Source: an uncultured delta proteobacterium (GTDB lineage: Bacteria; Desulfobacterota; Binatia; UBA9968). From it: DNA of 64,000 nt. Made by a program: the position numbers and the translations under genes. Shown one piece after another: positions 33,100 to 56,072 of this stretch; position 1 is the stretch's first letter, and each line of letters begins with the position of its first letter. The notes beneath the pieces were generated by a model. It ran no database searches and was not told the origin of the DNA. It saw only the letters and a list, made by a program, of their open reading frames with translations. The DNA lies in the NCBI GenBank assembly GCA_963755715.1, contig CAVWLW010000065.1, positions 5,766 to 69,765 of the forward strand. The letters run 5' to 3'.

Positions 33100-34431
33100 C
33101 TAGCGTGCCGCCTGGGTTCGGCCGATTTTCTGGCAATTTTCCAATTCCCGGAGTTTTTTTGTTAGAAACGTTTGTTCCGACTCGATCGTGACCAGCTCCA
33201 GGGCTTGACGAAAATAATTGGCCGCAGCCTCGCGATTGTCCAGACGCGTTTCGAACTCACCCAGAGTCGCATAGAGCAGATAATAAGAGTTCAACTGCTC
33301 CCGTTTGTGGATCGCTTCGATCGCTTCGATGCCGGTTCGCGGACCGTGAACGGCGGCCACGGCCACGGCGCGATTGAGCGCCACCACGGGAGAATCGTCG
33401 ATCTCGATCAAGCGGTCGTAGAGCGACAGGATACGCGGCCAATCCGTGGATTCGTAATCCTGCGCCGCGCAGTGGCAGGCGGTGATGGCGGCTTGAAGAT
33501 GATACTCGCTGGCTTCGTCGCCGGCGGTAGATTGCATCAGGTGATAGAAGCCGCGCGCGATCAACGACTGATCCCATTGTGAGCGGTTCTGCTCCTCGAG
33601 GCGAAGAATGTTTCCTTCGGCGTCCACTCGCGCCGGCAGGCGCGCGCCGTTCAAGAGCATCAGCGCCAGGAGCGCGTGCGAACGCGGTTGATTACCCGCG
33701 GGGTGTTCGGCTACCAACGCTGTCAGCCGTATCGCTTCATGACAAAGTTCGGCCCGGATCAAATGCTCGCCGCCTGAAGCTTTGTAACCTTCGTTGAAAA
33801 GTAGGTAAAGCGTTTGCAGCACGCCGTCCAAGCGCCGGGTCAGTTCTTCCCCGCTAGGAATTTCGAAAGCAATGCGCGCGTCACGGATTTTTTGCTTCGC
33901 CCGCGTCAACCGCTTGGCGATCGCCGCTTCAGAGGTGAGAAACGCCCGCGCGATTTCTCCGGGACTGAAACCGCAAAGGGTTTTGAGCGCGAGCGCGACC
34001 TGCATCTCCTGCGGAATGAGCGAATGGCAACACGTAAACATCATGCGCAAGCGGTCGTCTTTGATTTGATTTTCGGCAGTCGTGGAGCCTTCGTCGGTGG
34101 CGTCTTCGGAGACTTGCTCCATTAAGTGGGCGATTTCGGCTTCCTTGTTGCGGAAAACTTTATCGCGCCGGATGAGATCGAGGGCCAGATTTTTTGCCAC
34201 CTGGGTGATCCAAGCGGAAGGATTTCTCGGGATGCCGTAGTAGGGCCAAGTCTGTAACGCCCGCGCCAACGTTTCTTGCACCACGTCCTCGGCACGGTTC
34301 AGGTGCTCGATTCCGAAAATCCGCGTCAAGGTCGAGATTATCTTTCCCGCCTCGTGACGGAAAAAATGCTCCACCACCTGAGTAACTTCCCCAGGTGGCG
34401 CAACCGGAGCCGTGGTTTCAGAAATCGTCAT
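33100..34431 (-). CDS. ECF sigma factor with C-terminal TPR-like extension (COG4941 / ECF42-type), sigma-1
   Basis: 443 aa. Region 2 (AEDVVQETLARALQTWP...NPSAWITQVAKNLALD). MFTCCHSLIPQEMQVALALKTLCGFSPGEIARAF region 4. About 230-aa helical C-terminal extension. Paralogue of 54798-56072. Confidence 0.85.
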   Translation of the reverse strand: MTISETTAPVAPPGEVTQVVEHFFRHEAGKIISTLTRIFGIEHLNRAEDVVQETLARALQTWPYYGIPRNPSAWITQVAKNLALDLIRRDKVFRNKEAEIAHLMEQVSEDATDEGSTTAENQIKDDRLRMMFTCCHSLIPQEMQVALALKTLCGFSPGEIARAFLTSEAAIAKRLTRAKQKIRDARIAFEIPSGEELTRRLDGVLQTLYLLFNEGYKASGGEHLIRAELCHEAIRLTALVAEHPAGNQPRSHALLALMLLNGARLPARVDAEGNILRLEEQNRSQWDQSLIARGFYHLMQSTAGDEASEYHLQAAITACHCAAQDYESTDWPRILSLYDRLIEIDDSPVVALNRAVAVAAVHGPRTGIEAIEAIHKREQLNSYYLLYATLGEFETRLDNREAAANYFRQALELVTIESEQTFLTKKLRELENCQKIGRTQAAR

Positions 34432-34488
34432 TGTCGAAGATCGGTTTCGCGAACGCGTTTGTAGACGATGTTAGAATTTGTTCCTATT

Positions 34489-34668
34489 TTATTCTTGCTC
34501 GTATGCTCGCTTTAGACCTGCTATGTCGAGTTTATTCATTTGCATCATGGCGTTCATGACTCTTGTCGATTTGCCTGGATCCTTGTCGTGTAACAAAAAT
34601 AGAGGTTAAAAATTCGCCGCCTCTTCGGCTTTGCCATCGAACCACAAGAATGGGGTGATTTTCTGCAT
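34489..34668 (-). pseudogene. Internally deleted remnant of a PhnB-like VOC gene
   Basis: [20 protein letters not shown] is identical over 20 aa to the N-terminus of 50828-51301, with synonymous nucleotide differences. It is followed in another frame by [32 protein letters not shown], which matches that protein's C-terminus. About 100 codons are missing. Confidence 0.8.
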
Positions 34669-34695
34669 AACTTTTTAATCCTGCTGACCGGAAGA

Positions 34696-35103
34696 TTATG
34701 CGCTTGCCCGCGCCGGTTGCGCGTTGCTCGGGCTCAGCGCTAGCGGACATTCAGGAGCGACGGGTCGCACTTCCACCGACGCGCCGTAGTTCAGGCCGGG
34801 AAAGTTCTTGGCAATCTCCGTGGCTTCGTCCAAACTGCCGACTTCCAGCAAGAAAAAGCCGCCGATCGCTTCCTTGGATTCGGCAAACGGACCGTCAGCG
34901 ACTGAGCGACCCTTCTTCTGGGAAACAACTTTGCCCTCTGGAAAGAGAGGTTTGCCGACTTTGGCCTTGCCCTCTGCGGTCAAGCGGTCAAGCCAGGCGT
35001 ACATTTGTTTCACAACCTCCTGAATCTCTTCCGGGGAAAGGCCCTTGTGCCAATCTGTGCCACGGAATAGCAAGATGTATTCTGATTTTGCCGGTGCGCT
35101 CAT
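34696..35103 (-). CDS. YCII-related (DGPF) domain protein
   Basis: 135 aa. YILLFRG...ADGPFAESKEAIGGFFLLEV..LDEATEIAKNFPG. Confidence 0.85.
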   Translation of the reverse strand: MSAPAKSEYILLFRGTDWHKGLSPEEIQEVVKQMYAWLDRLTAEGKAKVGKPLFPEGKVVSQKKGRSVADGPFAESKEAIGGFFLLEVGSLDEATEIAKNFPGLNYGASVEVRPVAPECPLALSPSNAQPARASA

Positions 35104-35147
35104 ATAGATCTCCTTATCAAGTAATGGTTTTTATTGGCCTACAACAA

Positions 35148-35177
35148 TACGACGAACGGGCAAGCGGCTGCAGGACA
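35148..35177 (-). promoter_or_regulatory. ECF-type promoter candidate A1 (TGTCCT-N17-CGTCGTA)
   Basis: Minus-strand read: GTGTCCTGCAGCCGCTTGCCCGTTCGTCGTATTG. The -10 lies 45 nt upstream of the YCII ATG at 35103, heading the YCII-remnant-sigma-1 operon. Confidence 0.6.
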
Positions 35178-35208: not shown

Positions 35209-35784
35209 TCATTTGCCGAGCTTCATCGCTTTGGGGCGCGCCAGGAGACGATCCACGTAAGCCTCCAGCTTGGGCCGGTCCGGCGGTTTGCCCCACATTC
35301 GCTTCCAAATAAACATAGAGCCGATCATGATGTCAGCAGCGGTGAACCAGTCGCCGAACAGGTAAGGTCCGTTGCCCAGTTCGCTTTCGATCACGTCCTT
35401 GGCCGCTTCGAACTCCGTCCAGCCGCGTTGGGGCAACGTTTGTACATTCAACAAAGCGTCGCCCATGGCGGGCTCGAGTTGCGCGGTCGAGTAGACCATC
35501 AACGAGAGGTAGCGGCCGCGTTCCGGCGCGTCGATTTTGGGCGCGAGGTTGGCTTGCGAAAACTTGTCGCCGAGATACAGGCAGATCGCCGTGCCCTCGA
35601 AGATCTTCGAGTCGCCATCGACAAGCGCAGGTAGCTTGCCAGCCGGGTTGATCTTAAGAAACTCCGGCGTCTTGTGTTCACGCTTTGTGAAGTCGATGGG
35701 AACGATCTCATATTCTGCGCCGCACTCGTCAAGCATCCACTTGGCGATTACAGCCCGGCTCTGAGGATTGTAGTAAAGCTTCAT
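35209..35784 (-). CDS. Glutathione S-transferase
   Basis: ATG 35784 (MKLYYNPQSRA). PEFLKINPAGKLPALVDGD thioredoxin-like N-domain plus helical C-domain. The ORF track extends to 35859. Confidence 0.85.
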   Translation of the reverse strand: MKLYYNPQSRAVIAKWMLDECGAEYEIVPIDFTKREHKTPEFLKINPAGKLPALVDGDSKIFEGTAICLYLGDKFSQANLAPKIDAPERGRYLSLMVYSTAQLEPAMGDALLNVQTLPQRGWTEFEAAKDVIESELGNGPYLFGDWFTAADIMIGSMFIWKRMWGKPPDRPKLEAYVDRLLARPKAMKLGK

Positions 35785-36776: not shown

Positions 36777-37699
<923 letters not shown>

Positions 37700-40708: not shown

Positions 40709-41926
40709 TTATCTTCGGGCTTTTCGGCTTGACGCTGACAGCAGTCCGATGGCCGCGATGATACATATGGCGGCGGACACTGCCAGCGTGTGGTCGATGC
40801 CGATGATCGCGGCAGCGCTGCCGATCGCGAGCCCTCCAAGCGACCATAATCCGATGTCCATGAAGAACAGACTCAGAACTCGGCCGAGCAAATGCGGCGG
40901 CGTTTCCACTTGAATCGCGGTATTCGAAGCGGCGCGACCGGCGACTTGGCAACCGCCAACCAGAGCCAGGAACACCAAGGACAAGAAAAAGGAGTGTGAG
41001 AAGGTAAATAAGCCGAGGAAAAGGCCGAAGCCGGTCACGCAACAGCAGATCCAGAAAATCCCCGGGCGAAAGCTCCGCGTGGAGGCGAGGGACAAAGCCG
41101 AAACGATGGCGCCGGCTCCCGGAGCGGACATTAGAAGCCCGAACCCGGTTGGTCCGACATGCAAGATATTGGTCGCGAACATCGGGATGAATCGCGAATA
41201 GGGCGCGCCCACGAGCGCAACGATATAAGAAAGCGAAACAATCGAAAAAATCCGGCGGTTGTTGCGCAGATAACCGTAGCCCTCTTTGATTTCTTTCCAT
41301 ACGCCCTGCTTATGGGTCGGCGCTTCCCAGCGCGGCAATTTCATTAGATAGAGATTCCAGATGAGGGCCACGAAGCTAAGAGCATTGAGAAAAAAGCATC
41401 CAGATATCCCGAGGAACGCAATAATGGCTCCTCCCACGGAAGGGCCCAAAATCTTCGAGAGATTGAAGAAAGACGATTGAAGTCCGATGGCATTGAGCAA
41501 TTCTTCTTTGGGAACCATGCCGTTAACCAGCGACTGGCGCACGGTTTGATTGATCGTGTCGATACAGCCCAAAAAAAACGCCAAGACCGCGATGTGCCAA
41601 AAGAGAATGACTTTGAAATACACGGCGAAGCAATAGACGATTGCTTGAACCATCGCCAAGCTTTGAGTGATGATCAGCACTCGCCTGCGGTCGAAGCGAT
41701 CCGAAATGGCTCCGCCGATGGCGCCGAGAAATAATCGCGGCACGGTATCGAAAAAACTTACCAAGCCAAGCAAAAAGGGCGAATGCGTAAGCTGCCATAC
41801 GAGCCAGCTTTGGGCGATGCTCTGCATGAAGTCCCCGGAGGTCGAAATAACATTGCCCTCCACGAGCAGGCGAAAATTTCGATGTCTGAGGGAGCGAAAA
41901 GTTGAGAAATCGTAGATGCTGCGCAT
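40709..41926 (-). CDS. MFS transporter (EntS/MFS_3-like)
   Basis: 405 aa, 12 predicted TM segments. GAISDRFDRRRVLIITQ loop motif. Confidence 0.85.
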   Translation of the reverse strand: MRSIYDFSTFRSLRHRNFRLLVEGNVISTSGDFMQSIAQSWLVWQLTHSPFLLGLVSFFDTVPRLFLGAIGGAISDRFDRRRVLIITQSLAMVQAIVYCFAVYFKVILFWHIAVLAFFLGCIDTINQTVRQSLVNGMVPKEELLNAIGLQSSFFNLSKILGPSVGGAIIAFLGISGCFFLNALSFVALIWNLYLMKLPRWEAPTHKQGVWKEIKEGYGYLRNNRRIFSIVSLSYIVALVGAPYSRFIPMFATNILHVGPTGFGLLMSAPGAGAIVSALSLASTRSFRPGIFWICCCVTGFGLFLGLFTFSHSFFLSLVFLALVGGCQVAGRAASNTAIQVETPPHLLGRVLSLFFMDIGLWSLGGLAIGSAAAIIGIDHTLAVSAAICIIAAIGLLSASSRKARR

Positions 41927-42061
41927 TACGTGCCGAGTTGTCTGAAGACTTTCAAATTCAGTGTGACGGTAAAAGGGGCAGAAAGCAAAGACCGGCTGAC
42001 TCGCGGTCTGATAAAAACGCTTTTGCGCTAAAACTCTAAAGTCCGAATACCCACGCCACCG

Positions 42062-42466
42062 CTACTCCACGATCTCATCATAGCCTCGCCCAAGGAACTG
42101 GACGAAGCAGAACCCGTGGCCGAAGGGATCGGCCATGAGAGCGAGCTTGCCCCACTTGTGCGTGGCGATGGGCTGCTCTAGCTGCGCTCCAGCCGATAGA
42201 GCTCTCTGAACCGCCGGTTCGATTTCATCGACCACAAAATCAAGATGGACCGGCGTCCAATGGCGCTGGTAACTTCGACGCTGTGAGGTTGTTTCTGAAG
42301 CGAGTGTGCCAGGTATTTTGACGAGCAGGTAGATTGGCGCCGAACTTCCGAGCATCTCTACTCCAAGGGCTCCGAAGCGACGGCCGACCTTTAACCCAAA
42401 CGTATCTCCGTAAAAGCGGACTGCTTTATCGAGATCGTCAACGTCCAGATTTATCAAAAGATCCAT
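42062..42466 (-). CDS. VOC/glyoxalase family protein
   Basis: ATG 42466 (MDLLINLDVDDLDKAVRFYGDTFGLKV) ... ADPFGHGFCFVQ. Confidence 0.75.
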   Translation of the reverse strand: MDLLINLDVDDLDKAVRFYGDTFGLKVGRRFGALGVEMLGSSAPIYLLVKIPGTLASETTSQRRSYQRHWTPVHLDFVVDEIEPAVQRALSAGAQLEQPIATHKWGKLALMADPFGHGFCFVQFLGRGYDEIVE

Positions 42467-42537
42467 GACATATATTCGCGTCCTCACCTAGAGTTGGCAT
42501 AGAAGGCTCGTTCTTTCCCCGTCAGGCCGATAAAAAC

Positions 42538-42628
42538 CGGCATCCAGAAAGGGCGTATGCCATACGCCCCTACCTAAAATCCTGGATTCCGGGTCGCGCT
42601 AGCTATCGCCAGCTTGCCCGGAATGACG
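42538..42628 (+). repeat. Degenerate copy D of the palindromic repeat family
   Basis: ccggcatccag, palindrome gggcgtatgccatacgccc, then cctggattccggg...cccggaatgac. Confidence 0.55.
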
Positions 42629-42750
42629 CCCGTCCAGCAAACTTCTGAAGTTCCCCATGAACCGCCGCCGGTCATCCGCGGCAACGAAGGAATCGGCGTC
42701 GCTTGATTTCACAACGACCGTCCGTCGAAGTGTTGGAGTGGGAACGCTTT

Positions 42751-43128
42751 CTAGGTCGATTCCTCGAGCACGGACAAGATATTGCCGGCGGGATCTTTGA
42801 ACCACGCGATCAATGGTCCGCCACCGCGAAAGATTCCCTTCTCATCTGTTTTGAGCTCACCCTCATAGCGTTCGAAGCGCACACCTTTCTTTGTTAGCTG
42901 GTCCACGGCTTCCTCAATATTGCCGACCGGGAAATTGAGAATAGTGAAACTTGCCGGAGCGTGGTTTGGCTTGGGGTAGACGAGCACCTTAGTGCCGCCC
43001 GCGAAGTGCAGGTTCAATAGCCCATGAGTTTCAGAAACCTCCAACCCGAGTGTTTTGCCGTAAAACTCCTTCGCCTTTTGGATGTCGTTTACCGAGAAAC
43101 CACTAAATGCTTTAGTGTCTTTGAACAT
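42751..43128 (-). CDS. VOC/glyoxalase family protein
   Basis: ATG 43128 with ggaggt RBS ([31 protein letters not shown]) ... [13 protein letters not shown]. The ORF-track extension to 43296 overlaps the GFA gene. Confidence 0.8.
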
Positions 43129-43154
43129 AGCATTACCTCCGTGTGTCGCCGATT

Positions 43155-43502
43155 CTACATCGATCGTCCGTCGAAGTGTTGAACCGGAACGCTTTCCAGA
43201 TCGATTCCTTCGAGGCAGCGAATATTGATTGCGGCCATCCGATTGCCTTTGGGATCGGTGCCTTCTCCGTACGGATGAATGCCGCACGTCTGACAAAATC
43301 GGTGCTTGATAACGTGCTTGTTGAACGTGTACGTGCCGATGTCTTCTTCCGCTGTGAGCGCATGCAGCTGTTCACGCGGCACAAACCACAGGAGAGATCC
43401 TTTGCGGGAACACATCGAGCAATTGCATGCCATCGCGCCACTAAGTTCGCCTTCCACCTCGAATGCAACCTTGCCGCAGTGACAGCTACCTTTATAATTC
43501 AT
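43155..43502 (-). CDS. GFA-family (glutathione-dependent formaldehyde-activating-like) protein
   Basis: 115 aa. [11 protein letters not shown] ... [10 protein letters not shown] ... FCQTCG zinc-Cys pattern. Confidence 0.85.
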
Positions 43503-43575
43503 GTGAGGTTCTCCTTTTGCTCTGCTAGCAGTTCGCTGATAACCGAGCAGCGCCCAAAGAAGCGCCGCTCGCCGC

Positions 43576-43977: not shown

Positions 43978-44014
43978 GTTTTCTCCTTGTGTAGATTCAT
44001 TACACTACGAACTA

Positions 44015-45649: not shown

Positions 45650-45871
45650 CGAAATTGCCTCCTGCTTCTGGCGTTGTGAATACTGCGGCACGCTGTGTCT
45701 AAATAATACGATGCACTAACCATCTGTCGATATCTAGAGCAGAACCCACTTCGAGAGGGAAAGCGGGTACGAACTCTTTTCTTAATCGGAGAAAGGGGAT
45801 CGATGCAGCATTTATCATAGCAGATCCGGGTGGTGCGCGGAGGCCTGCGGTTGCTGCTGGTGGAAGTCAGA

Positions 45872-46613
45872 TTATTTTACGCCGTACTTGTCGTGGTGAC
45901 GGACCCACATGTCGCCCTGTTGGTTGAGATCTTCGGTGCCGCTCCAACCCTCCTGTCGGCCAAGCGGCGTCAGATCGAGATAGTTATAGGTGCCGATGAG
46001 CAGATCGCCGCCGCGCGCATAAGTCGAGTAGGTGTGAAAGACGTCGTCGCCCTCGCGCACGAAAAACGCTCAAGCCCGGCAGCTCGCCCTTCGTGAACCA
46101 GGGCATGCCGGCTTTCTCGTGCGCCGCCTTGTCCCGGTAGTTGTATTCGACGGGCGCGACGTTCTCGTCCAGGGTGACATGGAAATCGTAATTGAAGTCG
46201 CTGCCGAACGAGGAGTACCAGGGGAAGCTCCAACCCATCTGCTTTTTAAACGGCTGGATTTTGGCGAGCGTCGCGCGCGAAACGACAGCCAACGAGGTGT
46301 CGCGCGCGTGCAGATGGGCGAGGTGGCCGATGTTGTCGACCAGAAACGAGCACATCGGACAGCCCTCGTCCCAGCTGGGGTCGAACATGAAGTGGTAGAC
46401 GATGAGCTGGCGTCGTCCGCCGAACAAATCGAGCAAGCGCAGTTTCCCGGCCGGGCCCTCGAAGACATACTCTTTGTCGATCTTGACTCTCGGCAACTTA
46501 CGGCGCTCAGCGTTCAGCGCGTCGCGCTGGCGGGTGAATTCCTTTTCTTTGGCAAGCAGCTCCTTGCGGGCGACAAGCCACGCATCTCGCGAGACGACTT
46601 TCGGATAATCCAT
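45872..46613 (-). pseudogene. DUF899 thioredoxin-like protein, frame-disrupted
   Basis: MDYPKVVSRDAWLVARKELLAKEKEFTRQRDALNAERRKLP...CPMCS. ORF 45984-46664 and ORF 45872-46060 join as ...[27 protein letters not shown] at the T5 run near 46060-46068. Confidence 0.8.
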
Positions 46614-46757: not shown

Positions 46758-46787
46758 TACGACGGATGAGCAAAACATTTCAGGACA
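46758..46787 (-). promoter_or_regulatory. ECF-type promoter candidate A3 (TGTCCT-N17-CGTCGTA)
   Basis: Minus-strand read: ATTGTCCTGAAATGTTTTGCTCATCCGTCGTACTG. The -10 lies 145 nt upstream of the DUF899 ATG at 46613. Confidence 0.55.
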
Positions 46788-47013: not shown

Positions 47014-47424
47014 TCAGGCGGCCTGCTCGCAGTTAACCATCCACGGAATCCCGAATTGATCGACAAGCATTCCGAAACGCACGGCCCAGAAAGTCTTCTG
47101 GATCGGCATTTTCACTGTTCCGTTTTTTGCCAATGCGTCAAATATGCGTTCCGCGTCTGTCGGGTCGTCGATGCCGACCGTCACAGAGAATCCTTTTGAT
47201 TCTTCATAGCGGTCAGGTGGAGCGTCGGAACCCATCAACACCTCGTCACCGACGATTAGACGGGCGTGGAGGATCTTATTGCGCCATTCGGCTGGCACTT
47301 GTTCCTCCGCCGGCGTACCCACATGTGTGACCATTGCGACGATTTTGCCGCCAAGGCACTGCTCGTAGAACTTGAACGCTGCCTCGCATTGGCCGTTGAA
47401 AGTAAGATAAGAATTCAATTTCAT
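47014..47424 (-). CDS. PhnB/YjdN-like VOC family protein
   Basis: 136 aa. MKLNSYLTFNGQCEAAFKFYEQCLGG...ILHARLIVGDEVLMGSD...FGMLVDQFGIPWMVN. Confidence 0.82.
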   Translation of the reverse strand: MKLNSYLTFNGQCEAAFKFYEQCLGGKIVAMVTHVGTPAEEQVPAEWRNKILHARLIVGDEVLMGSDAPPDRYEESKGFSVTVGIDDPTDAERIFDALAKNGTVKMPIQKTFWAVRFGMLVDQFGIPWMVNCEQAA

Positions 47425-47534
47425 AATGCGCTCCTTTGACTAATGGGTCATCCAGAAAATCCGTTTGCGTGAGGGTCGCCGGAAATCTTGAGGTTCCACG
47501 AAGTCGACACTCGACTGACTCCGCGCTCTAACTG

Positions 47535-47564
47535 TACGATGAACGAAGCCCGAAGAAATCGACA
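47535..47564 (-). promoter_or_regulatory. ECF-type promoter candidate A5 (TGTCGA-N17-CATCGTA, hybrid)
   Basis: Minus-strand read: CGTGTCGATTTCTTCGGGCTTCGTTCATCGTACAG. The -10 lies 111 nt upstream of ATG 47424. Confidence 0.5.
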
Positions 47565-47635
47565 CGGCAGACGATCTTTTTTCTACAAGCTATCGAAGAT
47601 TTGCTCAGACCGTAGATTTTTCATCCTTCGAGCGC

Positions 47636-48013
47636 TCAAGATCGGGTCGAGGGAGGCGTCAGCCGCCAGCGGCCGTAGGCGACGAAGGCCGCGAGAATCC
47701 CGACCACCAGCGGGATCGGCGCCGATGCGAAATCACCGGCCGCCAGCGTGTACACGGTGGCGCCGATCATAACGATCACCAGCCCCGTGGCGGCCAACGG
47801 TGTCAGAGCCGGCCGTATGCGCAGGAGCCAAGGGAGGATCACTCCGATCGCGCCGAGCACCTCGACGATGCCCGTGAAACGGAGGAACCACCCCGGCAAC
47901 GGTATCGGCATCTGCTTCGTCATTTCCTCGATCGGTATGACTAGCTTCATTCCTCCAGCGAACAGAAAGATAGCCGCGAGCAGCGCCTGAGCGATCCATA
48001 GTGCAATGTTCAT
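47636..48013 (-). CDS. DoxX family membrane protein
   Basis: 125 aa, four TM segments. MNIALWIAQALLAAIFLFAGGMKL. Confidence 0.8.
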   Translation of the reverse strand: MNIALWIAQALLAAIFLFAGGMKLVIPIEEMTKQMPIPLPGWFLRFTGIVEVLGAIGVILPWLLRIRPALTPLAATGLVIVMIGATVYTLAAGDFASAPIPLVVGILAAFVAYGRWRLTPPSTRS

Positions 48014-48247
48014 GATCGGTCTCCTTCGTTGTGATTCGCAGCTGTTATTGCTCTACACTGCGGAATACTTACTGTTATCGATTCTTCTCCGTTACGTGCT
48101 TGTAATAAAGTTCAACGATCTGTGAATTATGAGTTTTATCTTTGATCAATCTTAGTTTAATGCCGTGACGCGAGTCTTTAAACACGGCGAACATGAAAAT
48201 TTATTTTCAGCGGGTAACCGCAACACCGATGACGATTTGTGCGAAAA

Positions 48248-48697
48248 CTAGTTTCCTTTGAAGCCACTGCGCAGTGGAATGAGCGCGCGCAACCGGTCAT
48301 CGCGCACGTAAAGCCCGCCCCAAATCAGCACTGCGATATAGACTGGGAACAATGTGTGGCTGAAGAGCGGGCTTCCCACGCGCACATGCGTGGCGATGGC
48401 GCCGCCGAGATAGCCGGTTAGCAGAATCGCGCCGAGAATAGCCGTGCGCGGAATCATGTAAAGAACAGTGCAGGTAAGGAGGACGATTCCAAGACCGAGC
48501 AAGACGCTTTCGGGATAGCCGAGCTGAACGGTGCCCTCCACGACCGGTGCGGGTTTCACCAGTTTTCCGACGCCGTCTACGAGCAGGAACAGGGCAGGGA
48601 GACCGCTCATAATGCGTCCGGTCCAGAGCCTCCCCTTGGAGAGGGGCGTGGATTGAGCATCTGCTTGGCGGGCGTGCATTGTCGTAGTTGCTTCCAT
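48248..48697 (-). CDS. DoxX-like family membrane protein
   Basis: 149 aa, four TM segments. SGLPALFLLVDGVGKLVKP...LTGYLGGAIATHVRVG. Confidence 0.7.
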   Translation of the reverse strand: MEATTTMHARQADAQSTPLSKGRLWTGRIMSGLPALFLLVDGVGKLVKPAPVVEGTVQLGYPESVLLGLGIVLLTCTVLYMIPRTAILGAILLTGYLGGAIATHVRVGSPLFSHTLFPVYIAVLIWGGLYVRDDRLRALIPLRSGFKGN

Positions 48698-48826: not shown

Positions 48827-48856
48827 TACGACGAGCGAAATGAGCTCTTCAGGACA
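48827..48856 (-). promoter_or_regulatory. ECF-type promoter candidate A6 (TGTCCT-N17-CGTCGTA)
   Basis: Minus-strand read: GAGATGTCCTGAAGAGCTCATTTCGCTCGTCGTAGAATTG. The -10 lies 130 nt upstream of ATG 48697. Confidence 0.55.
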
Positions 48857-48881: not shown

Positions 48882-49241
48882 TCAGGCGTCGACCAGGACC
48901 TTGAATCCGCCCCAGAACATGCGCTTGCCATCGAACGGCATCGACTTTGGATCCATCATCTTTGCCAGGCGCGGGTCCTTCATGACCTTCGCGTTGACAC
49001 GGTCGCGATGCGCACGCGACTTGAACACAATCCACGAGAACACCACCGTCTCGCCGGGCTTGAGCTTGACGCTCTGCGGGAACGACGTGCGCTTGCCCGG
49101 CTTCACGTCGTCGGCGACGCACTCGGTGAACTCGAGAGCGCCGTGATCGCGCCAAACTTTTCCAGCCTTCTGGGCCATGCGACGATAGGCCTGCAGCTTC
49201 TTTTTCGGCACCGGCAAAACGTAACCATCGACGTAGCGCAT
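48882..49241 (-). CDS. DUF1428 domain protein
   Basis: 119 aa. MRYVDGYVLPVPKKKLQAYRRMAQKAGKVWRDHGALEF...FGGFKVLV. Confidence 0.85.
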   Translation of the reverse strand: MRYVDGYVLPVPKKKLQAYRRMAQKAGKVWRDHGALEFTECVADDVKPGKRTSFPQSVKLKPGETVVFSWIVFKSRAHRDRVNAKVMKDPRLAKMMDPKSMPFDGKRMFWGGFKVLVDA

Positions 49242-49305
49242 AAAAATCTCCCTTGGTTTGCTGAAAAAATATAGAAACAGATCACTATCGCGATGCGACG
49301 AATCT

Positions 49306-49602
49306 CTAGCCGCCGGCGATTGCCCCCACGATCATAAAGGGCTCGGCGCCACTCGCGACAGCCTGGGGCAGCGGCGCGTCCGGCGCTTCGTGGGAGAGAT
49401 CTTCCCCGCACGCGAAAAATCGCACGAATGCTCGGCGTTTTTTCGTGGTGTGGTCGCGGATCGTGCCGCGCAACATCGGATAACGAGCCTCGAGCGCGTC
49501 GAGCACCGAACGCTGCGTGACCTCACCCTCGACGTCGAGCTTCACCTCGCCGTCGACTTGCGCGAGCTTGCGCAGATGTGCTGGGAGCGTGACACGGATC
49601 AT
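49306..49602 (-). CDS. MoaD/ThiS-family ubiquitin-like small protein ending in Gly-Gly
   Basis: 98 aa from ATG 49602 ([26 protein letters not shown]...[10 protein letters not shown]). ATGA overlap with the upstream gene stop. Confidence 0.7.
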
Positions 49603-50786
49603 GGCAGCGTCTGGACCTCGACGGACACCACGGCCGGAAGATCGCGGACAATGGGCGCCCAGTTGTCGCCCGCGTCGGCGGATGCATACACCTGCCCGCC
49701 GGTCGTGCCGAAGTACACGCCGCACTTATCGAGCGAGTCGACGGCCATGGCGTCGCGCAGCACGTTGACATAGCAGTCGCTCTGCGGCAGGCCTTTGGTG
49801 AGCGCTTCCCACTCGTTGCCGCCAGATCGGCTGCGGTACACGCGGAGCTTGCCGTCGGGCGGAAAATGTTCCGAGTCGCTCTTGATCGGCACGACGTAGA
49901 TGGTCTCCGGCTCATGCGCATGAACGTCGATCGCGAAGCCGAAGTCGGTCGGCAGATTGCCGCTGATCTCATGCCACGACTCGCCGGCATCGTCGCTGCG
50001 CATGACGTCCCAGTGCTTCTGCATGAACAGCACGTCCGGGCGCGAGCGATGCATCGCGATGCGATGAACGCAGTGGCCGATCTCCGCGGTCGGATCAGGG
50101 ATATAGAGTGAATGCAGGCCGCGGTTGATCGGCTGCCAAGTCTTGCCGCCGTCATCGGTGCGAAACGTGCCAGCCGAAGAGATGGCGACGAACATTCGTT
50201 CCTGGTTACTTGGATCGAGAAGGATGGTGTGCAGGCACATTCCTCCGGCGCCCGGCGCCACATTGTCACCTGAACCGTGGCCTCGCAGGCCGGCGAGCTC
50301 GCGCCACGATTTGCCACCGTCGGTGGAGCGGAACAGGGCAGCGTCTTCGACGCCGGCGTAAACCGTGTCGGGATCAGTCAGCGACGGTTCGAGATGCCAG
50401 ACGCGCTTGAACTCCCACGGATGCGCCGTGCCGTCGTACCATTGGTGCGTGGTGAGCGGCTTGCCCGTTTCGGCGGATGTATCGTAAACAAACTTGTTGC
50501 TCTCGCCCTTGGGCGTGCCGTCCGGGGCGGTGGTCGGTTCGCCTGGCGGCGTTCCCGGTTGGTGCCATGTCTTTCCGCCATCATCTGAGCGTTGAATGAT
50601 CTGCCCAAACCAGCTGCTGGACTGCGACGCATACAACCGGTTCGGATCCGCTGGAGATCCCTTGAGGTGATACATCTCCCAGCCGGCAAAGTGGGGGCTG
50701 CTGACCTCCCATTTTTCACGCTTTCCGTCCGACGTGAGAATAAATGCGCCTTTGCGCGTGCCTACCAATACTCGTACTCCGCTCAT
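49599..50786 (-). CDS. BNR/Asp-box repeat beta-propeller protein (sialidase/Ycf48-like fold, function unknown)
   Basis: 395 aa with six S-x-D-x-G-x-x-W type boxes: [54 protein letters not shown]. Confidence 0.8.
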
Positions 50787-50827
50787 GTCTTTCTCCTTAT
50801 TGATTGAGTTTCGCGCGCCGCGTTATT

Positions 50828-51301
50828 TTATTGTTGCTCGTTTGCTCTCTTCAGACTTGCGATGTCGAGCTTGTCCATTTGCAGCATGGCGTTCATAACT
50901 CGCTTCGATTTCTCGGCATCCTTGTCTTGCAGCAATTGACCCAGGACGGTCGGCACAATTTGCCACGACACGCCGAATTTATCTTTAAGCCAACCGCATC
51001 TCTGCTTTTCCCCGCCCTCGGAGAGCTTTTCCCAGAATTTATCGACCTCTTCCTGCGTCTCGCAATGCACGAAGAACGATATGGCCGGCGAGAAGGTGAA
51101 CATGGGACCGCCGTTCAATGCGATGAACTCTTGTCCCTGGAGTTCGAAGGTCGCGGACATGACCGATCCTTTCGGTCCGGGTCCTGCCTCGCCAGAGCGC
51201 ATCATGCTCACAATCTTTGAGTTTGGAAAGATGGAAGTGTAGAAGTTCGCGGCCTCTTCGGCTTTGCCATCGAACCACAAAAACGGTGTGATTTTTTGCA
51301 T
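50828..51301 (-). CDS. PhnB-like VOC family protein (3-demethylubiquinone-9 3-methyltransferase-domain type)
   Basis: 157 aa. [30 protein letters not shown]...[16 protein letters not shown]. Confidence 0.85.
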
Positions 51302-51324
51302 ATCGTTTTATTCCTATGCTGATT

Positions 51325-51735
51325 TCAAGGCGCAACCGTAACCATCCAGCCGACGCCGAAGCGATCTGCAACCATGCCGAAGCAGGGCGACCAGAAGGTT
51401 TTGCCGAGCGGCATTTGCACCTGCCCGCCTTCGGCCAGCGCGGCGAACTTTCGTTTCGCGTCGGCTTCATCAGCCGCCGTGAGCGATAATGAAAATCCCT
51501 GAAAATTTGTCCCTTCGCTGCAACCGTCGGAGGCCATCACATTAGCGTTGCCGATGCGCAAGGTCGCGTGCATGATCTTGTTCTCCCAGCCCGGCGGCAC
51601 CATCCCCGGCGGCGTGGGTTCCGGACTTTCTTTGTAACGCATCAGCATCAAAACCTCGGCGCCAAGCGCCTTTTTGTAAAACTCGATCGCCTCTTCGCAG
51701 CGGCCGTTAAAAAATAGATAGGGTTCGATAGCCAT
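51325..51735 (-). CDS. PhnB/YjdN-like VOC family protein
   Basis: 136 aa. PYLFFNGRCEEAIEFYKKALGAEV...IMHATLRIGNANVMASD...FGMVADRFGVGWMV. Confidence 0.85.
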   Translation of the reverse strand: MAIEPYLFFNGRCEEAIEFYKKALGAEVLMLMRYKESPEPTPPGMVPPGWENKIMHATLRIGNANVMASDGCSEGTNFQGFSLSLTAADEADAKRKFAALAEGGQVQMPLGKTFWSPCFGMVADRFGVGWMVTVAP

Positions 51736-51822
51736 AATCGCATCTCCTTTTTGTGGGTTGGTATTTCTTGATCGTTCTAATGGGTTTTTTAAACAGGCAC
51801 GACGCCGAGCGACATCGCTCGC

Positions 51823-52203
51823 TCACGGATTCTCGGCGGCATTGACCTTTGCGGTAGATTCCTCGTCGAGGGCGCGGATCTCGAAAGTCGCCACGCGAAT
51901 CCCCGGATGTTTCGACATCAATTCGGTTGCGTGATTTAGATCGATGGCATCGAGCAAGAGAACACCGCCGATTTGTTCCTTGGTTTCAGCGTATGGGCCG
52001 TCGGTGATGGATACCTTGCCATTCCGGTAGCGCAAAGTTCTCGCGTTTTGCGCATTTTGCAGCGCCTCCAGGCGAACGAAATGACCATTCCTTTTAAGGA
52101 CGTTGTCGTAAGCGAAACATTCCTTGATGAAGGTCTCACGCTCGCTATCAGACATGACGTCGAACTTTTGTTCATCTATGTGTGACAGACAAAGAAGCTT
52201 CAT
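51823..52203 (-). CDS. YCII-related (DGPF) domain protein
   Basis: ATG 52203 (MKLLCLSHIDEQ...). [20 protein letters not shown]. The longer ORF-track start (52269) would overlap promoter B2. Confidence 0.85.
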   Translation of the reverse strand: MKLLCLSHIDEQKFDVMSDSERETFIKECFAYDNVLKRNGHFVRLEALQNAQNARTLRYRNGKVSITDGPYAETKEQIGGVLLLDAIDLNHATELMSKHPGIRVATFEIRALDEESTAKVNAAENP

Positions 52204-52240: not shown

Positions 52241-52268
52241 TAGTCGTTCAGCCGCCACGGAATCGACA
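52241..52268 (-). promoter_or_regulatory. ECF-type promoter candidate B2 (TGTCGA-N16-CGACTA)
   Basis: Minus-strand read: GATGTCGATTCCGTGGCGGCTGAACGACTACTGG. The -10 lies 38 nt upstream of ATG 52203. Confidence 0.55.
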
Positions 52269-52313: not shown

Positions 52314-52670
52314 TCAGCACTCCAACTCGGCAATGCAACGCACTTCGACCGTGCCCCCCGCCGGAAGCGTCGGGATGCGCGCCGCGATCGACATCGCCTC
52401 GTTCAGATCCATGCAATCGATAAGGTGGTAGCCGCCGAGTTGCTCTTTGGTCTCGGCGAAGGGCCCATCGGTAAGTACTGTCCTGCCGTTCTTCATGCGC
52501 ACTGTCTTCGCTGACGGCGCCGGGTGGAGTTTTGCTCCGCCGCGGAAGTGGCCAGTGTCGACGAGATTCTGTACCCAATCTCCATAGTCCTGCATAATCT
52601 TGTCCTTCTGCGCGCCGGGTAAGTTGTTCCAGGCAGTCTCGTCGAAACAGCACATCAGCATATATTGCAT
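52314..52670 (-). CDS. YCII-related (DGPF) domain protein
   Basis: 118 aa. MQYMLMCCFDE...[21 protein letters not shown]. Confidence 0.88.
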   Translation of the reverse strand: MQYMLMCCFDETAWNNLPGAQKDKIMQDYGDWVQNLVDTGHFRGGAKLHPAPSAKTVRMKNGRTVLTDGPFAETKEQLGGYHLIDCMDLNEAMSIAARIPTLPAGGTVEVRCIAELEC

Positions 52671-52779
52671 AGTGATCTCTCCATTCTGAAACTCGGCAGT
52701 AGCAGAGCGGCATAAAGCTGCTTCTGCACAAACCCCAGATGATTTAGCTTACCGAGTGGCGAAACTTCCCGACATGGGT

Positions 52780-53658
52780 TCACGCTTCGAGCGGAATCCA
52801 AATCTCCATTCCGCCCATACCGGTTTTGGGATTGAACTCTTCGGTGTAGCGCTCGAAGCACGGGGCGCTCGCCACTTTGAGCCCCGCTTGGGGCACCCAC
52901 TCGTTCCATATTTTGTCGATAGTATTGCCGATGGCAGAGACATTGTCCGGGTGCGTGAAGACCGCATATTCGCGGGCGGGGAGTCGTACGGTCGCGAACT
53001 CAGCCGGGAGTCCCTTGGCGTCCTTCACTTCGACACCCGAGAGATACTCGAATCCACGCCCCGGCGATACGTTCCAACAAACGCCGTAGGAAACTTGACC
53101 CATCTGTCCGGGGACCTTGCCGATTTTCGGGGCAAACCGTTCCCATTGTGCGGGAATCTTGGCCCGGGTTTCGAACGTGTAGCTCTCGTTCAAACCGGCG
53201 ACAACGATCTCCTTGGCATGCTCAAAGCGGGGTGCTCCGAGCCCCAGCGCCTGGGCGCGAATGCTGGCTTCTTGCCTGCGCAGTTCCGGCGTAAACTCGG
53301 CGCCGAAATCTTCCGCCTCGAAAAGTGGGCGAATCTCGACCTCGCCATCCTCGTTGTACGGATTGGGGCAGCGCTTGACCCACTCGATCGCCTCTTCTTT
53401 GGACTTGCACTGCCATAGCCAGTAGCCGGCGATCAGTTCTTTGGTCTCGGCGAAGGGCCCGTCGATCACGGTGCGCTGGCCGCCGGAAAACCTGACACGC
53501 GCGGCTTTGGAGGTCGGATGCAGTCCCTCCCCAGCAAGCATCACGCCGGCTTTCACCAGCTCTTCATTGAATTGGCCCATCTCGGTGAGGAGTCGCTCGC
53601 TCGGCATCACGCCTGCTTCCGAGTCCTTAGTGGCCTTGACCAAGATCATGAATCGCAT
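52780..53658 (-). CDS. YCII (DGPF) domain fused to a GyrI-like/AraC-effector-binding-like domain
   Basis: 292 aa. N-terminal MRFMILVKAT...VIDGPFAETKELIAGYWLW...EIRPLFE. C-terminal half (IVVAGLNESYTFETRAKIPAQWERF...EYAVFTH...MEIWIPLE) has the GyrI-like SHS2 pattern. Confidence 0.75.
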   Translation of the reverse strand: MRFMILVKATKDSEAGVMPSERLLTEMGQFNEELVKAGVMLAGEGLHPTSKAARVRFSGGQRTVIDGPFAETKELIAGYWLWQCKSKEEAIEWVKRCPNPYNEDGEVEIRPLFEAEDFGAEFTPELRRQEASIRAQALGLGAPRFEHAKEIVVAGLNESYTFETRAKIPAQWERFAPKIGKVPGQMGQVSYGVCWNVSPGRGFEYLSGVEVKDAKGLPAEFATVRLPAREYAVFTHPDNVSAIGNTIDKIWNEWVPQAGLKVASAPCFERYTEEFNPKTGMGGMEIWIPLEA

Positions 53659-53729
53659 CGTCGTATCTCCTTCTGTCTTTTTGATCGGCCGCGCCGTGGC
53701 TCTGGGGTTAAATCACTGCTGATATTCCT

Positions 53730-53758
53730 TAGTCGATCGGCTCGGCGCAAAATCGACA
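53730..53758 (-). promoter_or_regulatory. ECF-type promoter candidate B3 (TGTCGA-N17-CGACTA)
   Basis: Minus-strand read: GCTGTCGATTTTGCGCCGAGCCGATCGACTAAGG. The -10 lies 72 nt upstream of ATG 53658, just after the stop of the upstream YCII gene. Confidence 0.55.
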
Positions 53759-53763
53759 GCCGT

Positions 53764-54150
53764 TCACTCTGCGCCGGGCGTGTTAAGTCCGAGCGCGAGC
53801 GTCTGCGCATCCTCCGCGATCGGCCGCACCTCGACGCAGCCGAAGCGCGCGCCCGGGATCTTGGCGGCTACCCGGATCGCCTCGTTCAGATCCCTGGCCT
53901 CGATGACGTAATAGCCGCCGAACTGCTCCTTGGTCTCGGCGAAAGGTCCGTCGGTTGTCGACACCTTGCCGTCGCGCACGCGGACAGTGATCGCCGTATC
54001 GGCGGGGGTCAGCCGATTGGCGCCGATAAAGTGACCGTTTCTTTTGATGTCGGCCGTGAACTCAGCGTACTCCTGGAAGTGCTGCTCCGCATCGGCCGGC
54101 GCCATTTGCTCCATCACGGTCTCGGCGCAGATCAGGCAAATGAATTTCAT
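53764..54150 (-). CDS. YCII-related (DGPF) domain protein
   Basis: 128 aa. MKFICLICAE...TTDGPFAETKEQFGGYYVIEA. Confidence 0.88.
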   Translation of the reverse strand: MKFICLICAETVMEQMAPADAEQHFQEYAEFTADIKRNGHFIGANRLTPADTAITVRVRDGKVSTTDGPFAETKEQFGGYYVIEARDLNEAIRVAAKIPGARFGCVEVRPIAEDAQTLALGLNTPGAE

Positions 54151-54304
54151 CTCGTCTCCTTTTTTTGTCGAACGGCGTCAATCAACCAACGACCCACAGC
54201 CCACGTCGCCGGCATTTCGTCGTGGCCCGAGGACTTAGGGATGTTCAGGCGCGCTGGGAGCATCAGGATGGTCACGTTGATCTGCGAGAACCGGGTTTCT
54301 CACA

Positions 54305-54697
54305 TCATTCGCCCTTTGAACGGCGCCGCTCACTCTCGTGGATCATTTCGGTCAAGTCCTCAGCCGGCCGAATCTCGAAGGGTCCTGCCTTCACACCTGG
54401 ATGCTTCGACATCAACTGGATGGCGTGGTTAAGGTCTTTGGCCTCGAGCACGAGGATCCCGCCCAACTGTTCTTTCGTCTCGGCATACGGGCCATCGGTG
54501 ATGGACACCTTGCCGTTCTTCCATCGCAGCGTGGTAGCGTTCCCAGCGCCTTGGAGCGCTTCTCCACCAACAAAGTGACCTTTTTTTCGCAGCACGTCGT
54601 CGTAGGCGAAGCACTCATCGACCATGGCGTTCCGCTCGGTTTCGGACATCGTTTCCCACTTCTTCTCTTCCATGTATCCAAGGCATACGTATTTCAT
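54305..54697 (-). CDS. YCII-related (DGPF) domain protein
   Basis: ATG 54697 after aggagg ([14 protein letters not shown]...). [21 protein letters not shown]. The ORF-track start 54733 would abut promoter B1. Confidence 0.85.
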
Positions 54698-54737
54698 AAT
54701 TTCCTCCTGATCGTATTTGATTGGTCGTTTCACCCTG

Positions 54738-54766
54738 TAGTCGTTCAGGCGAGCCCAGAATCGACA
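54738..54766 (-). promoter_or_regulatory. ECF-type promoter candidate B1 (TGTCGA-N17-CGACTA)
   Basis: Minus-strand read: GTTGTCGATTCTGGGCTCGCCTGAACGACTACAGGG. The -10 lies 41 nt upstream of ATG 54697, directly downstream of sigma-2. Confidence 0.6.
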
Positions 54767-54797
54767 ACGGGACTTTAGAAAAACTGCTTTCGCGGTC

Positions 54798-56072
54798 TCA
54801 GCCCGGCAGTTCGGCTAGACGCCGCTTCAGAAACCGCCGCTCCGGCTCCTGCTCCGTGAGGCTCAGCGCTCGTTCGTAGGAGGCTCGGGCTTCCGCGATT
54901 CGCCCCAACCGCCGGCAGAGATCCGCCCGCGCTGCATGGGCGAGGTGGTAGCCGGAAAGATCACCGCGTTCCAGGATCGCGTCGATCAGCGCAACTCCCT
55001 CAGACGGACCGTCGCGCATCGCCACCGCCACCGCCCGGTTCAGCTCGACCACGGGCGACGGCTCCGCCAGCGCTAGCAGGTCATAAAGCGCGACGATCTG
55101 GGTCCAGTCCGTGGCGGCGGCGTTGGCCGCATTAGCGTGCACGGCTGCGATCGCTCCTTGGACGGTGTATGGGCCAACCTGGTTTGCCGCCAGCGCCCGT
55201 TCCACCAGCGCTGAGCCCTCCGCGATCTGATCCCGGTTCCAAAGCGAGCGGTCCTGGTCGTTAAGCAGGATCAACTCCCCGCTCGACGATGTGCGCGCGG
55301 CGCGGCGCGAGTCGTGCAGCAGCATCAGCGCGAGCAGTCCCAGCGCTTCCGGCTCCGGCAGCAACTCCACAAGCAGCCGACCGAGGCTGATCGCCTCGCT
55401 TGAAAGATCGTGCCGCGTGAGTGCCGCACCGGATGACGCGGAATATCCCTCGTTGAACACGAGGTAGACGACCCGAAGCACGGCATCGAGTCGGTCCGGC
55501 AGCTCGGTCGCCGAGGGTACCTCGTAGGGAATGCGCGCGTTACGAATCTTTGCTTTGGCGCGGACGATGCGCTGCGCCACCGTGGCCGGCGATGAAAGAA
55601 ACGCGCGCGCAACCTCCTCCGTTGTCAGGCCGCAGACTTCGCGCAGCGTCATCGCCACTTGAGCGTCCGGCGACAGGGCTGGATGGCAGCAGGTGAAGAT
55701 GAGGCGCAGCCGATCGTCTTTGATGCTTTCGTCGTTCCACGCCTCGGGATCATCGGTGTCCGCCACGAGTCGCTTGTCGATATCGTCCGGCAACGGCGTG
55801 AATCGGCTGCGCCGGCGAATTGCGTCGATCGCCTTGAAACGGCCGGTCGACACGAGCCAGGCGCGTGGATTGGCGGGGACACCATCGCGCGGCCATTGCT
55901 CCAAAGCCGCCCTGAAAGCGTCGTGCAATGCCTCTTCGGCGATATCGAAGTCGCCGAGTAGGCGGATTAACGTGGCGAGGACGTGGCGCGAATCGGAGCG
56001 GTAGACGGCGTCCACCGTGTTGCGCGCGTGTTCAGGCGCGATGCCTAAGCCGGTTTGTGGGTCGCGATCCAT
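54798..56072 (-). CDS. ECF sigma factor with C-terminal TPR-like extension (COG4941 / ECF42-type), sigma-2
   Basis: ATG 56072 ([15 protein letters not shown]...). [17 protein letters not shown]...[50 protein letters not shown]. Long helical C-terminal extension. The ORF track extends to 56237. Confidence 0.85.

Follow-up and report, generated by a model that had tools for sequence, protein, structure and literature searches.

The window analysed here is a stretch of 64,000 nucleotides (nt) from an uncultured delta proteobacterium (GenBank assembly GCA_963755715.1, contig CAVWLW010000065.1, positions 5,766 to 69,765), and it carries two genes for extracytoplasmic function (ECF) sigma factors of group ECF42, referred to below as sigma-1 and sigma-2, which are surrounded by a minus-strand island of small operons between 33 and 58 kb. 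A comparison of the window with ~170 related loci indicates, with a probability that we put at roughly 0.7, that the two proteins belong to two old, separate ECF42 subclades and that each would use promoters of its own subclade's type, TGTCC…CGTC for sigma-1 and TGTCGA…CGAC for sigma-2; two stress-type gene sets are probably switched separately. An earlier note on this DNA had proposed two co-resident ECF42 sigma factors with different -35 and -10 preferences and interleaved regulons, and this proposal is now strongly supported by the way in which the motif variant tracks the sigma clade, by the positions of the residues that differ, and by a prediction that connects a lysine in the protein with TGTCC in the promoter.

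Both proteins possess the ECF core of sigma-70 regions 2 and 4, with Sigma70_r2 and Sigma70_r4_2 scoring above threshold, and both pass the sigma70-ECF superfamily model of NCBIfam, a collection that has no ECF42-specific model. DUF6596, the Pfam model for the proximal part of the ECF42 C-terminal extension, scores 123.5 and 128.8 bits for the two sigmas, while TPR_2, TPR_12 and other tetratricopeptide repeat (TPR) models match residues 353-421 of sigma-2 below the Pfam cut-offs. The TPR-like C-terminal extension measures about 200 amino acids (aa); the alignment of sigma-1 with sigma-2 continues up to residue 430, with 40% identity over 418 aa, and the FTCCH(S/P) segment is present in both, which confirms the COG4941/ECF42 layout that had been assigned to them. 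Each of the two open reading frames (ORFs) is unbroken over its full length and retains every clade-typical residue. As had been claimed, the domain matches of the neighbouring ORFs of either gene (the small ORFs of the gap upstream of sigma-2 left out) include no anti-sigma domain.

The sigma-1-type motif TGTCCY-N17-CGTCGTA (P1) has five exact matches in the window, all located on the minus strand and all preceding operons, compared with 0.06 expected; no shuffle reached five. The site P1a heads the operon composed of a YCII gene and sigma-1 (Table 1), so that the autoregulation-like layout described for sigma-1 stands, as does the placing of this variant ahead of the sigma-1 operon. The count of that operon plus five dispersed genes has to be lowered to five sites in total: no sixth site was found in the window with up to two mismatches or with looser regular expressions, the two-mismatch search adding two matches only, both of them devoid of TGTC and at chance level. 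The sigma-2-type motif TGTCGA-N17-CGACTA (P2) has two exact matches, which lie just downstream of sigma-2, the only place reported for it; relaxing the pattern to TGTCGATT-N16/17-CGACTA yields three sites, all within 3.8 kb downstream of sigma-2, including an N16 site (P2c) that had been overlooked. These three sites head three tandem operons directly downstream of sigma-2. All eight P1 and P2 sites are situated 37-144 nt upstream of an ATG start codon, and in five of them (three P1 sites and two P2 sites) the -35 element is immediately preceded by an A/T-rich stretch. What is conserved among the sites is limited to two short blocks at fixed spacing with unrelated spacers between them, for which reason we reject copies of a dispersed repeat.

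The same frame is found in the mapped promoters of the ECF42 member RpoE10 of Sinorhizobium meliloti, where the start sites of two operons are preceded by TGTCGG-N16/17-CGTC; the RpoE10 targets encode glyoxalase-like and hypothetical proteins, and rpoE10 itself follows a YCII gene (PMC6180224). In a strain 97.6-99% identical to the window (L161; metagenome assembly ENA ERZ25039585, contig_771), all -35 and -10 blocks of P1 and P2 are intact, the substitutions in the promoters being confined to the spacer or to positions that follow the -10 element. Two further observations concern individual sites. Around the -10 element, P1b is identical to P1e over 19 bases (TTCGTCGTATTAATGAAAC), which points to one of these promoter regions being a copy of the other. 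At the place of a hybrid degenerate site of the window (Table 1), strain L161 displays a canonical TGTCGATT…TTCGTCATA (18521-18550), and the VOC gene (~720 bp) is absent there.

The relation between motif variant and sigma clade was followed through related loci. When one genome per species was scanned with the alignment of both sigmas, 80 ECF42 loci came up; they were sorted by tblastn into sigma-1-like loci (Verrucomicrobiota at 52-69%, one metagenome-assembled genome (MAG) labelled deltaproteobacterium at 73%, and Bacteroidota at ~40-48%), close sigma-2-like loci (65-72%; MAGs labelled Nitrospira, Planctomycetes, Acidobacteriota, Zixibacteria and others) and distant sigma-2-like loci (48-58%; mainly Chloroflexi and Actinobacteria). 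The coding strand was searched for TGTCNN-N16-18-CG(A/T)C from 1200 nt upstream to 250 nt downstream of sigma. Of the 50 sigma-1-like loci, 24 displayed TGTCC/CGTC, five TGTCG/CGTC and none TGTCG/CGAC, while seven of the nine close sigma-2-like loci displayed TGTCG/CGAC and nothing else, the counts of TGTCC/CGTC and TGTCG/CGTC in this group being zero. The 22 distant sigma-2-like loci were intermediate (TGTCC/CGTC 1, TGTCG/CGTC 11, TGTCG/CGAC 3). The opposite strand, used as a control, gave scattered matches only, and the three motif types sort by clade in a neighbour-joining tree, with the canonical TGTCG/CGTC placed between the other two.

A metagenome scan with sigma-2 provided 80 further relatives (65-79% identity), of which 52 possess TGTCG…CGAC; a GT-type site occurs at a single locus, and so does a CT-type site. 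Thirty-nine of these TGTCG…CGAC sites are located +13 to +185 nt after the sigma stop, as is P2a in the window, and 19 are located ~415-580 nt upstream, where they head a YCII–sigma operon. For the sigma-2 clade as a whole, TGTCGA…CGAC is present in 59 of 89 loci and any CGTC-type site near sigma in 2 of 89, and over ~160 loci from many phyla the motif variant follows the sigma clade. The three consensus motifs are tTGTCC-N17-cgttCGTC.t, TGTCGAttc-N17-ccgtTCGTCgt and TGTCGAttt-N17-CcgaaCGACtAt; the window types follow the frame and spacing of the canonical ECF42 combination TGTCGA/CGTC, and neither of them is that combination, sigma-1's type being TGTCC/CGTC and sigma-2's TGTCGA/CGAC. The first gene after a motif site encodes a YCII protein in 92 of 162 cases. 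Five sigma-2 relatives (L113, L121, L122, L124 and L131) have a YCII gene (MKYLCLVY…) ~10-60 nt after sigma with no P2 site between them, and the internal-promoter layout of the window is therefore not universal in this clade.

A second example of the two systems in one place is provided by a MAG labelled Hydrogenedentes (L002, 6886-11305), in which a sigma-2-like gene, a P2 site, a YCII gene, a P1-type site, a VOC gene, a YCII gene and a sigma-1-like gene succeed one another. Each motif adjoins its own sigma, and the variants are distinct though the systems are only 1.7 kb apart; the two ECF42 clades thus lie side by side in at least one other lineage.

When the sigmas were grouped by motif type and aligned to E. 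coli RpoE for numbering, few alignment columns separated the groups. The eight residues named by Todor et al. all fell at the right positions, and the HMMER match ranges to PDB 1or7 gave the same offset. At the RpoE-Ser172 position, lysine (K) is present in all 25 TGTCC sigmas and glutamine (Q) in 23 of the 24 sigmas with TGTCG-type sites; counted by residue, K goes with C at position 5 of the -35 element in 25 cases and with G in one, and Q with G in 26 cases and with C in one. Two exceptions to this rule were discarded, the site of L001 being inside a PhnB-like coding sequence and that of L017 overlapping a real TGTCGA site. The RpoE-Asn80 position holds N with CGTC in 38 of 40 sigmas and F with CGAC in eight of eight. 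The RpoE-Phe175 position has T, Y, V or F in TGTCC sigmas (mostly T/Y in the sigma-1 clade) versus V in those with TGTCG-type sites, at the RpoE-Lys56 position the sigma-1 clade has mostly R/K where the sigma-2 clade has A, and the loop-L3 position (RpoE Tyr71) has R in the sigma-2 clade. In the window itself, sigma-1 has K173 and T176 in region 4.2 and N81, R57 and S72 in region 2, and sigma-2 has Q167 and V170 in region 4.2 and F79, A55 and R70 in region 2; Q, V, F and R occupy the 172, 175, 80 and 71 positions in every one of the 80 sigma-2 relatives from metagenomes. The residue comparison for which the earlier note had called thus yields differences at the ECF-specificity positions 172, 175, 80 and 56, and both paralogues have Ala at the Arg171 and Asp at the Asn84 position.

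According to Todor et al. 2020 (PMC7776599), the Ser172 position sets -35 specificity, as shown by mutagenesis; base -32 covaries with Phe175, recognition of -11T is ascribed to Ile77, Ala60 and Asn80, and a basic residue at Lys56 favours -11T, Phe175 and Lys56 being tied to specificity by covariation and modelling. The same work describes ECF sigmas as very sensitive to single-base promoter changes, with single substitutions able to switch specificity. The T-to-A difference between CGTC and CGAC falls at the -11 position. A sister clade of sigma-2 with His at the RpoE-80 position (L045, L051, L066 and L077) gave no clear motif, and it therefore offers no independent test of the -10 rule.

An actinobacterial sigma (L073) nested among Q/TGTCGA sigmas has K at position 172 and adjoins TGTCC…CGTC. 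A protein search with L073 returned 120 relatives (P0001-P0120; 69-95% identity), 118 with K and two with Q at this position, and contexts were fetched for six of them, of which five were informative, the second Q contig being too short. All four K relatives with usable context display TGTCCA…TTCGTCGT (three) or GGTCCA…TTCGTCGTC (one) ahead of YCII/sigma genes, and the one informative Q relative, 71% identical to the query, displays TGTCGATTTCGG…TTCGTCGGG with the core TGTCGATT…TTCGTCGG. The prediction that K goes with TGTCC held in this independent subclade. On sequence grounds, K-with-C arose at least twice, which speaks against shared history as the sole basis of the -35 rule. The subclade itself is large (L073 and L165-L169; e.g. 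Nonomuraea phyllanthi) and acquired Lys at the Ser172 position independently, together with TGTCCA…TTCGTCGT sites; several of its loci have an ORF of 55-70 aa between promoter and YCII gene or after sigma.

The two window loci had been described as diverged duplicates, a claim that has to be dropped. Besides the low identity between the sigmas, flanking paralogue pairs share 34% (GST), 33-48% (YCII) and 41% (VOC) identity, and each sigma has closer relatives (65-79%) in other lineages; the sigma phylogeny, suggested earlier as a check, places the two in deeply separated ECF42 clades. Paralogue identities and tree position rule out a recent segmental duplication, and the resemblance of the loci in YCII, VOC and GST genes is the usual ECF42 regulon content. 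The G+C content of sigma-2 (65.8%, versus 57.3% for sigma-1 and 55.5% for the window) hints that the sigma-2 module was acquired separately; the other genes of this module are mixed in G+C content.

From the adjacency of genes and motifs and from the covariation described above, we infer which sigma reads which motif, and how far the two are insulated from each other. Sigma-1 (whose clade has K, mostly T/Y, N and mostly R/K at the four positions) would read TGTCCY-N17-(T)CGTCGTA and would drive from P1 the YCII–sigma-1 operon together with the VOC/GFA/MFS, DUF899, DoxX/VOC and SnoaL-remnant/GST operons; with P1a on its own operon, sigma-1 would be under positive feedback. Sigma-2 (whose clade has Q, V, F and A, plus R in loop L3) would read TGTCGATT-N16/17-(A/T)CGACTA and drive from P2 three tandem operons with six YCII paralogues, VOC/PhnB, a BNR protein and DUF1428; P2 is not on its own gene, so that this circuit would be open-loop. 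Compared with the canonical TGTCGA…CGTC, the sigma-1 type would have changed in the -35 and the sigma-2 type in the -10 element, and the pair therefore differs in both elements. In published ECF work a difference in both elements is what confers strong insulation, and Rhodius et al. traced ECF orthogonality to the combination of -35 and -10 elements (PMC3817407). By analogy with other ECF42 members in the literature, the activity of each sigma is presumably controlled via its C-terminal TPR-like extension, possibly with YCII proteins.

Whether the two gene sets are independent depends in part on the 527-nt non-coding gap upstream of sigma-2, in which crude promoter and terminator scans, not tuned to the organism, revealed neither a sigma-70-like match nor a terminator-like site, and searches for P1- or P2-like sites and for Rfam families gave no match; the absence of a convincing promoter for sigma-2 had been noted before. 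The gap contains a 55-nt insertion (56301-56355) relative to strain L161. This region gives rise to the alternative to which we attach most weight while holding it unlikely, namely a cascade in which sigma-1 would control sigma-2 by read-through from P1e via the GST gene and the P2 regulon would form a second tier. P1e, the SnoaL remnant and the GST gene are indeed directly upstream of sigma-2 on the same strand, and neither a terminator nor a promoter of its own was found for sigma-2, but 527 nt is long for an operon junction, the promoter and terminator scans are crude as stated, and no P1-type site lies upstream of sigma in the sigma-2 relatives surveyed. The P1e–GST–sigma-2 arrangement is not conserved in L002, where the order is reversed, with the sigma-2-like gene and P2 upstream of the sigma-1 operon. 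We think it rather improbable that recognition simply overlaps, both sigmas starting at both variants, each variant having come with its module and the regulons being redundant. Such overlap is extensive among B. subtilis ECF paralogues, several of which read CGTC (PMC5758882), P1 and P2 share TGTC, the spacing and a CGNC frame, the hybrid site at 47535-47564 mixes both motif types, and the regulons are alike in kind (YCII, VOC, GST). Set against this are the divergence of the variants in both elements, the scarcity of CGTC-type sites near sigma in the sigma-2 clade, the distinctness of the variants at 1.7 kb separation in L002, and the location of the differing residues at specificity-switching positions of proteins sensitive to single-base changes (PMC7776599).

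Very improbable, in our view, is a situation in which a single functional sigma is accompanied by a silent passenger, such as a newly acquired module whose motifs go unused in this host. The high G+C content of sigma-2, its lack of a recognisable promoter and the several truncated genes in the island would fit such a passenger; yet both sigma ORFs are intact with clade-typical residues, all YCII genes of the sigma-2 regulon are intact, and a strain diverged by ~2% keeps both sets of promoter elements while the spacers change. We give next to no credence to the idea that the motifs are operators of another regulator or dispersed repeat copies instead of sigma-dependent promoters: the bases shared by P1b and P1e speak for it, but conservation is confined to two blocks at fixed spacing, and the sites accompany ECF42 sigma genes across many phyla, covary with DNA-contact residues of sigma and match the promoters at RpoE10-dependent mapped start sites.

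Several points weigh against two separate, clade-specific systems, the reading that we prefer. Sigma and motif are matched on the strength of adjacency and covariation, and about a third to half of the related loci have no motif under the simple pattern. The link between F80 and CGAC has a single evolutionary origin in the sample, so that for the -10 rule shared history is not fully separable from function. The ECF42 -35 hexamer can be placed on the RpoE numbering only to within 1-2 nt, and the base touched by K173 or Q167 is therefore not assignable. Sigma-2 might also use a CGTC-type -10 element, because several B. subtilis ECF sigmas read CGTC. Finally, the P1 and P2 regulons may be coupled instead of independent, because P1e and the GST gene run into sigma-2 without a terminator-like site.

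The features of the two neighbourhoods are compiled in Table 1. Sigma-1 is accompanied by CorA, by a YCII gene that lies next to it upstream and points the same way, and by a GST gene; upstream of sigma-2 lies a GST gene, and downstream of it six YCII-domain genes are followed by VOC, PhnB-like, BNR-repeat and DUF1428 genes. A YCII/DGPF neighbourhood is thus present at both sigmas, and likewise in related loci. The earlier description of YCII, PhnB-like VOC and GST genes beside each sigma holds for YCII and GST at sigma-1 and fails there for the PhnB-like VOC, the nearest VOC gene being ~8 kb off under P1b. The sigma-2 module (56072-48882) sits between two P1 operons, so that the regulons are physically interleaved.

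Table 1. Sigma genes, predicted promoter sites and predicted operons in the window (aa, amino acids; nt, nucleotides)
Feature	Coordinates	Strand	Description
Sigma-1, ECF42-type sigma factor	33100..34431	-	443 aa; Pfam Sigma70_r2, Sigma70_r4_2, DUF6596
YCII/DGPF gene	34696..35103	-	First gene of the YCII–sigma-1 operon; Pfam YCII; site-YCII-sigma order also in sigma-1 relatives
P1a	35148..35177	-	TGTCCTGCAGCCGCTTGCCCGTTCGTCGTA; heads YCII–sigma-1 operon
GST gene upstream of P1a	35209..35784	-	Pfam GST_N/GST_C; no P1/P2 site of its own
P1b operon	40709..44191	-	VOC remnant 44015-44191, VOC 43576-43977, GFA 43155-43502, VOC 42751-43128, Glyoxalase_6 42062-42466, MFS transporter 40709-41926
P1b	44259..44288	-	TGTCCCGGAGCCACGCGCTCATTCGTCGTA; heads VOC/GFA/VOC/glyoxalase/MFS operon
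P1c operon	45161..46613	-	DUF899 45984-46613, hypothetical protein 45161-45649
P1c	46758..46787	-	TGTCCTGAAATGTTTTGCTCATCCGTCGTA; heads DUF899 operon
P1d operon	47014..48697	-	DoxX_2 48248-48697, DoxX_2 47636-48013, VOC/PhnB-like 47014-47424
Hybrid degenerate site	47535..47564	-	TGTCGATTTCTTCGGGCTTCGTTCATCGTA; sigma-2-type -35 TGTCGATT, -10 TTCATCGTA of CGTC type decayed to CATC; upstream of VOC 47014-47424
P1d	48827..48856	-	TGTCCTGAAGAGCTCATTTCGCTCGTCGTA; heads two DoxX genes and VOC
P2c operon	48882..52203	-	YCII 51823-52203, VOC 51325-51735, PhnB-like 50828-51301, BNR-repeat protein 49599-50786, DUF1428 48882-49241
P2c	52241..52268	-	TGTCGATTCCGTGGCGGCTGAACGACTA; N16 spacer, ahead of another YCII gene
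P2b operon	52314..53658	-	YCII–GyrI-like fusion 52780-53658, YCII 52314-52670
P2b	53730..53758	-	TGTCGATTTTGCGCCGAGCCGATCGACTA
P2a operon	53764..54697	-	YCII 54305-54697, YCII 53764-54150
P2a	54738..54766	-	TGTCGATTCTGGGCTCGCCTGAACGACTA; motif starts 32 nt past end of sigma-2 ORF
Sigma-2, ECF42-type sigma factor	54798..56072	-	424 aa; Pfam Sigma70_r2, Sigma70_r4_2, DUF6596
Non-coding gap upstream of sigma-2	56073..56599	-	527 nt
P1e operon	56600..57469	-	SnoaL-like remnant 57298-57469, GST 56600-57229; directly upstream of sigma-2
P1e	57534..57563	-	TGTCCCGAGGGTATTTTCTCGTTCGTCGTA; heads SnoaL remnant and GST

The six tandem YCII-domain genes (51823-54697, minus strand) show mutual identities of 29-61% and represent a large YCII expansion, unusual for a single locus; one of them (52780-53658) is a fusion with a GyrI-like small-molecule-binding domain. 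Both P1b and P1e are followed first by truncated ORFs, a 58-aa VOC-like fragment after P1b and SnoaL_3 fragments of 18 aa and 43 aa after P1e. On the plus strand, an amidohydrolase is split in two overlapping ORFs (38976-39905 and 39778-40611), likely a frameshift that stems from a pseudogene or an assembly error.

ECF42 is among the most widespread ECF groups, and two separately wired systems in one cell would imply two different inputs or outputs; the comparison of their regulons, with detoxification-type enzymes and DoxX/MFS membrane proteins in the sigma-1 set and an expanded YCII array with VOC/PhnB in the sigma-2 set, provides a handle on ECF42 function. It is about an even bet, in our estimate, that the group as a whole comprises at least three specificity classes (TGTCGA/CGTC, TGTCC/CGTC and TGTCGA/CGAC) set by a small residue code, K versus Q at 172 for the -35 and N (with R/K56) versus F (with A56 and R71) at 80 for the -10 element, that side-by-side pairs differ in both elements, and that the window holds a natural anti-sigma-free orthogonal pair, swappable by two to four point mutations. 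Such findings would qualify the working rule that each ECF group has one promoter motif and make the published ECF specificity code testable in a group without the customary Arg171 and Asn84 determinants, and anti-sigma-free sigma/promoter pairs that differ by few residues are attractive orthogonal parts for synthetic biology. The main value is that nature offers here a clean example, open to test, of how specificity diverges within a single ECF group.

The ECF42 architecture, its linkage to YCII, the missing anti-sigma and the small local regulons are established, and the C-terminal extension is reported to be required for activity in ECF42 members of Streptomyces venezuelae. Neither distinct ECF42 specificity classes nor their residue determinants, nor co-resident pairs of different class, turned up in the literature examined; subgroup logos in ECF Hub may already show such variants. 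Liu et al. in 2018 reportedly gave CGA/TC as the -10 element. The idea of subgroup-specific promoters is not wholly new: according to Casas-Pastor et al. 2021 (ECF classification 2.0/ECF Hub), motifs were predicted per subgroup and are sometimes subgroup-specific, ECF30 being the named example. The available part of Todor et al. treats ECF41 and ECF42 as examples of local regulators and describes no specificity classes within ECF42 (PMC7776599); the clade-separating positions 172, 175, 80 and 56 are among those listed in its code (Arg171, Ser172, Phe175, Asn84, Lys56, Asn80), whereas Ala at 171 and Asp at 84 in both paralogues make for a different discriminating subset.

Like the ECF42 members described in S. 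venezuelae (SVEN_0747, SVEN_4377 and SVEN_7131), S. meliloti (RpoE10) and Pseudomonas putida (ECF-10), the window sigmas combine sigma2 and sigma4 regions with a TPR-like extension of ~200 aa and no anti-sigma; YCII/DGPF genes are adjacent and would be the main targets, glyoxalase-like targets would recur as for RpoE10, and the predicted regulon is small and local, with promoters in a TGTC…CG(T/A)C frame. Unlike in the described members, which use TGTCG(A/G)…CGTC, one clade has TGTCC at -35 and the other CGAC at -10, the two clades are co-resident with interleaved regulons, and the sigma-2 type often has its target promoter just after sigma, not ahead of a YCII–sigma operon. The nearest parallel for same-cell ECF paralogues discriminated largely by one or two -10 bases is B. 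subtilis sigX/sigW/sigM, where CGAC is sigX-specific, CGTA sigW-specific and CGTC shared, and where a T-tract next to -35 modulates selectivity (PMC5758882); P2 likewise has such a tract (TGTCGATTT) and P1 has none. The B. subtilis sigmas, however, come from separate ECF groups, are paired with membrane anti-sigmas and use one common -35 element (AAC), whereas the window pair belongs to one ECF group, has no anti-sigma and differs in the -35 element too.

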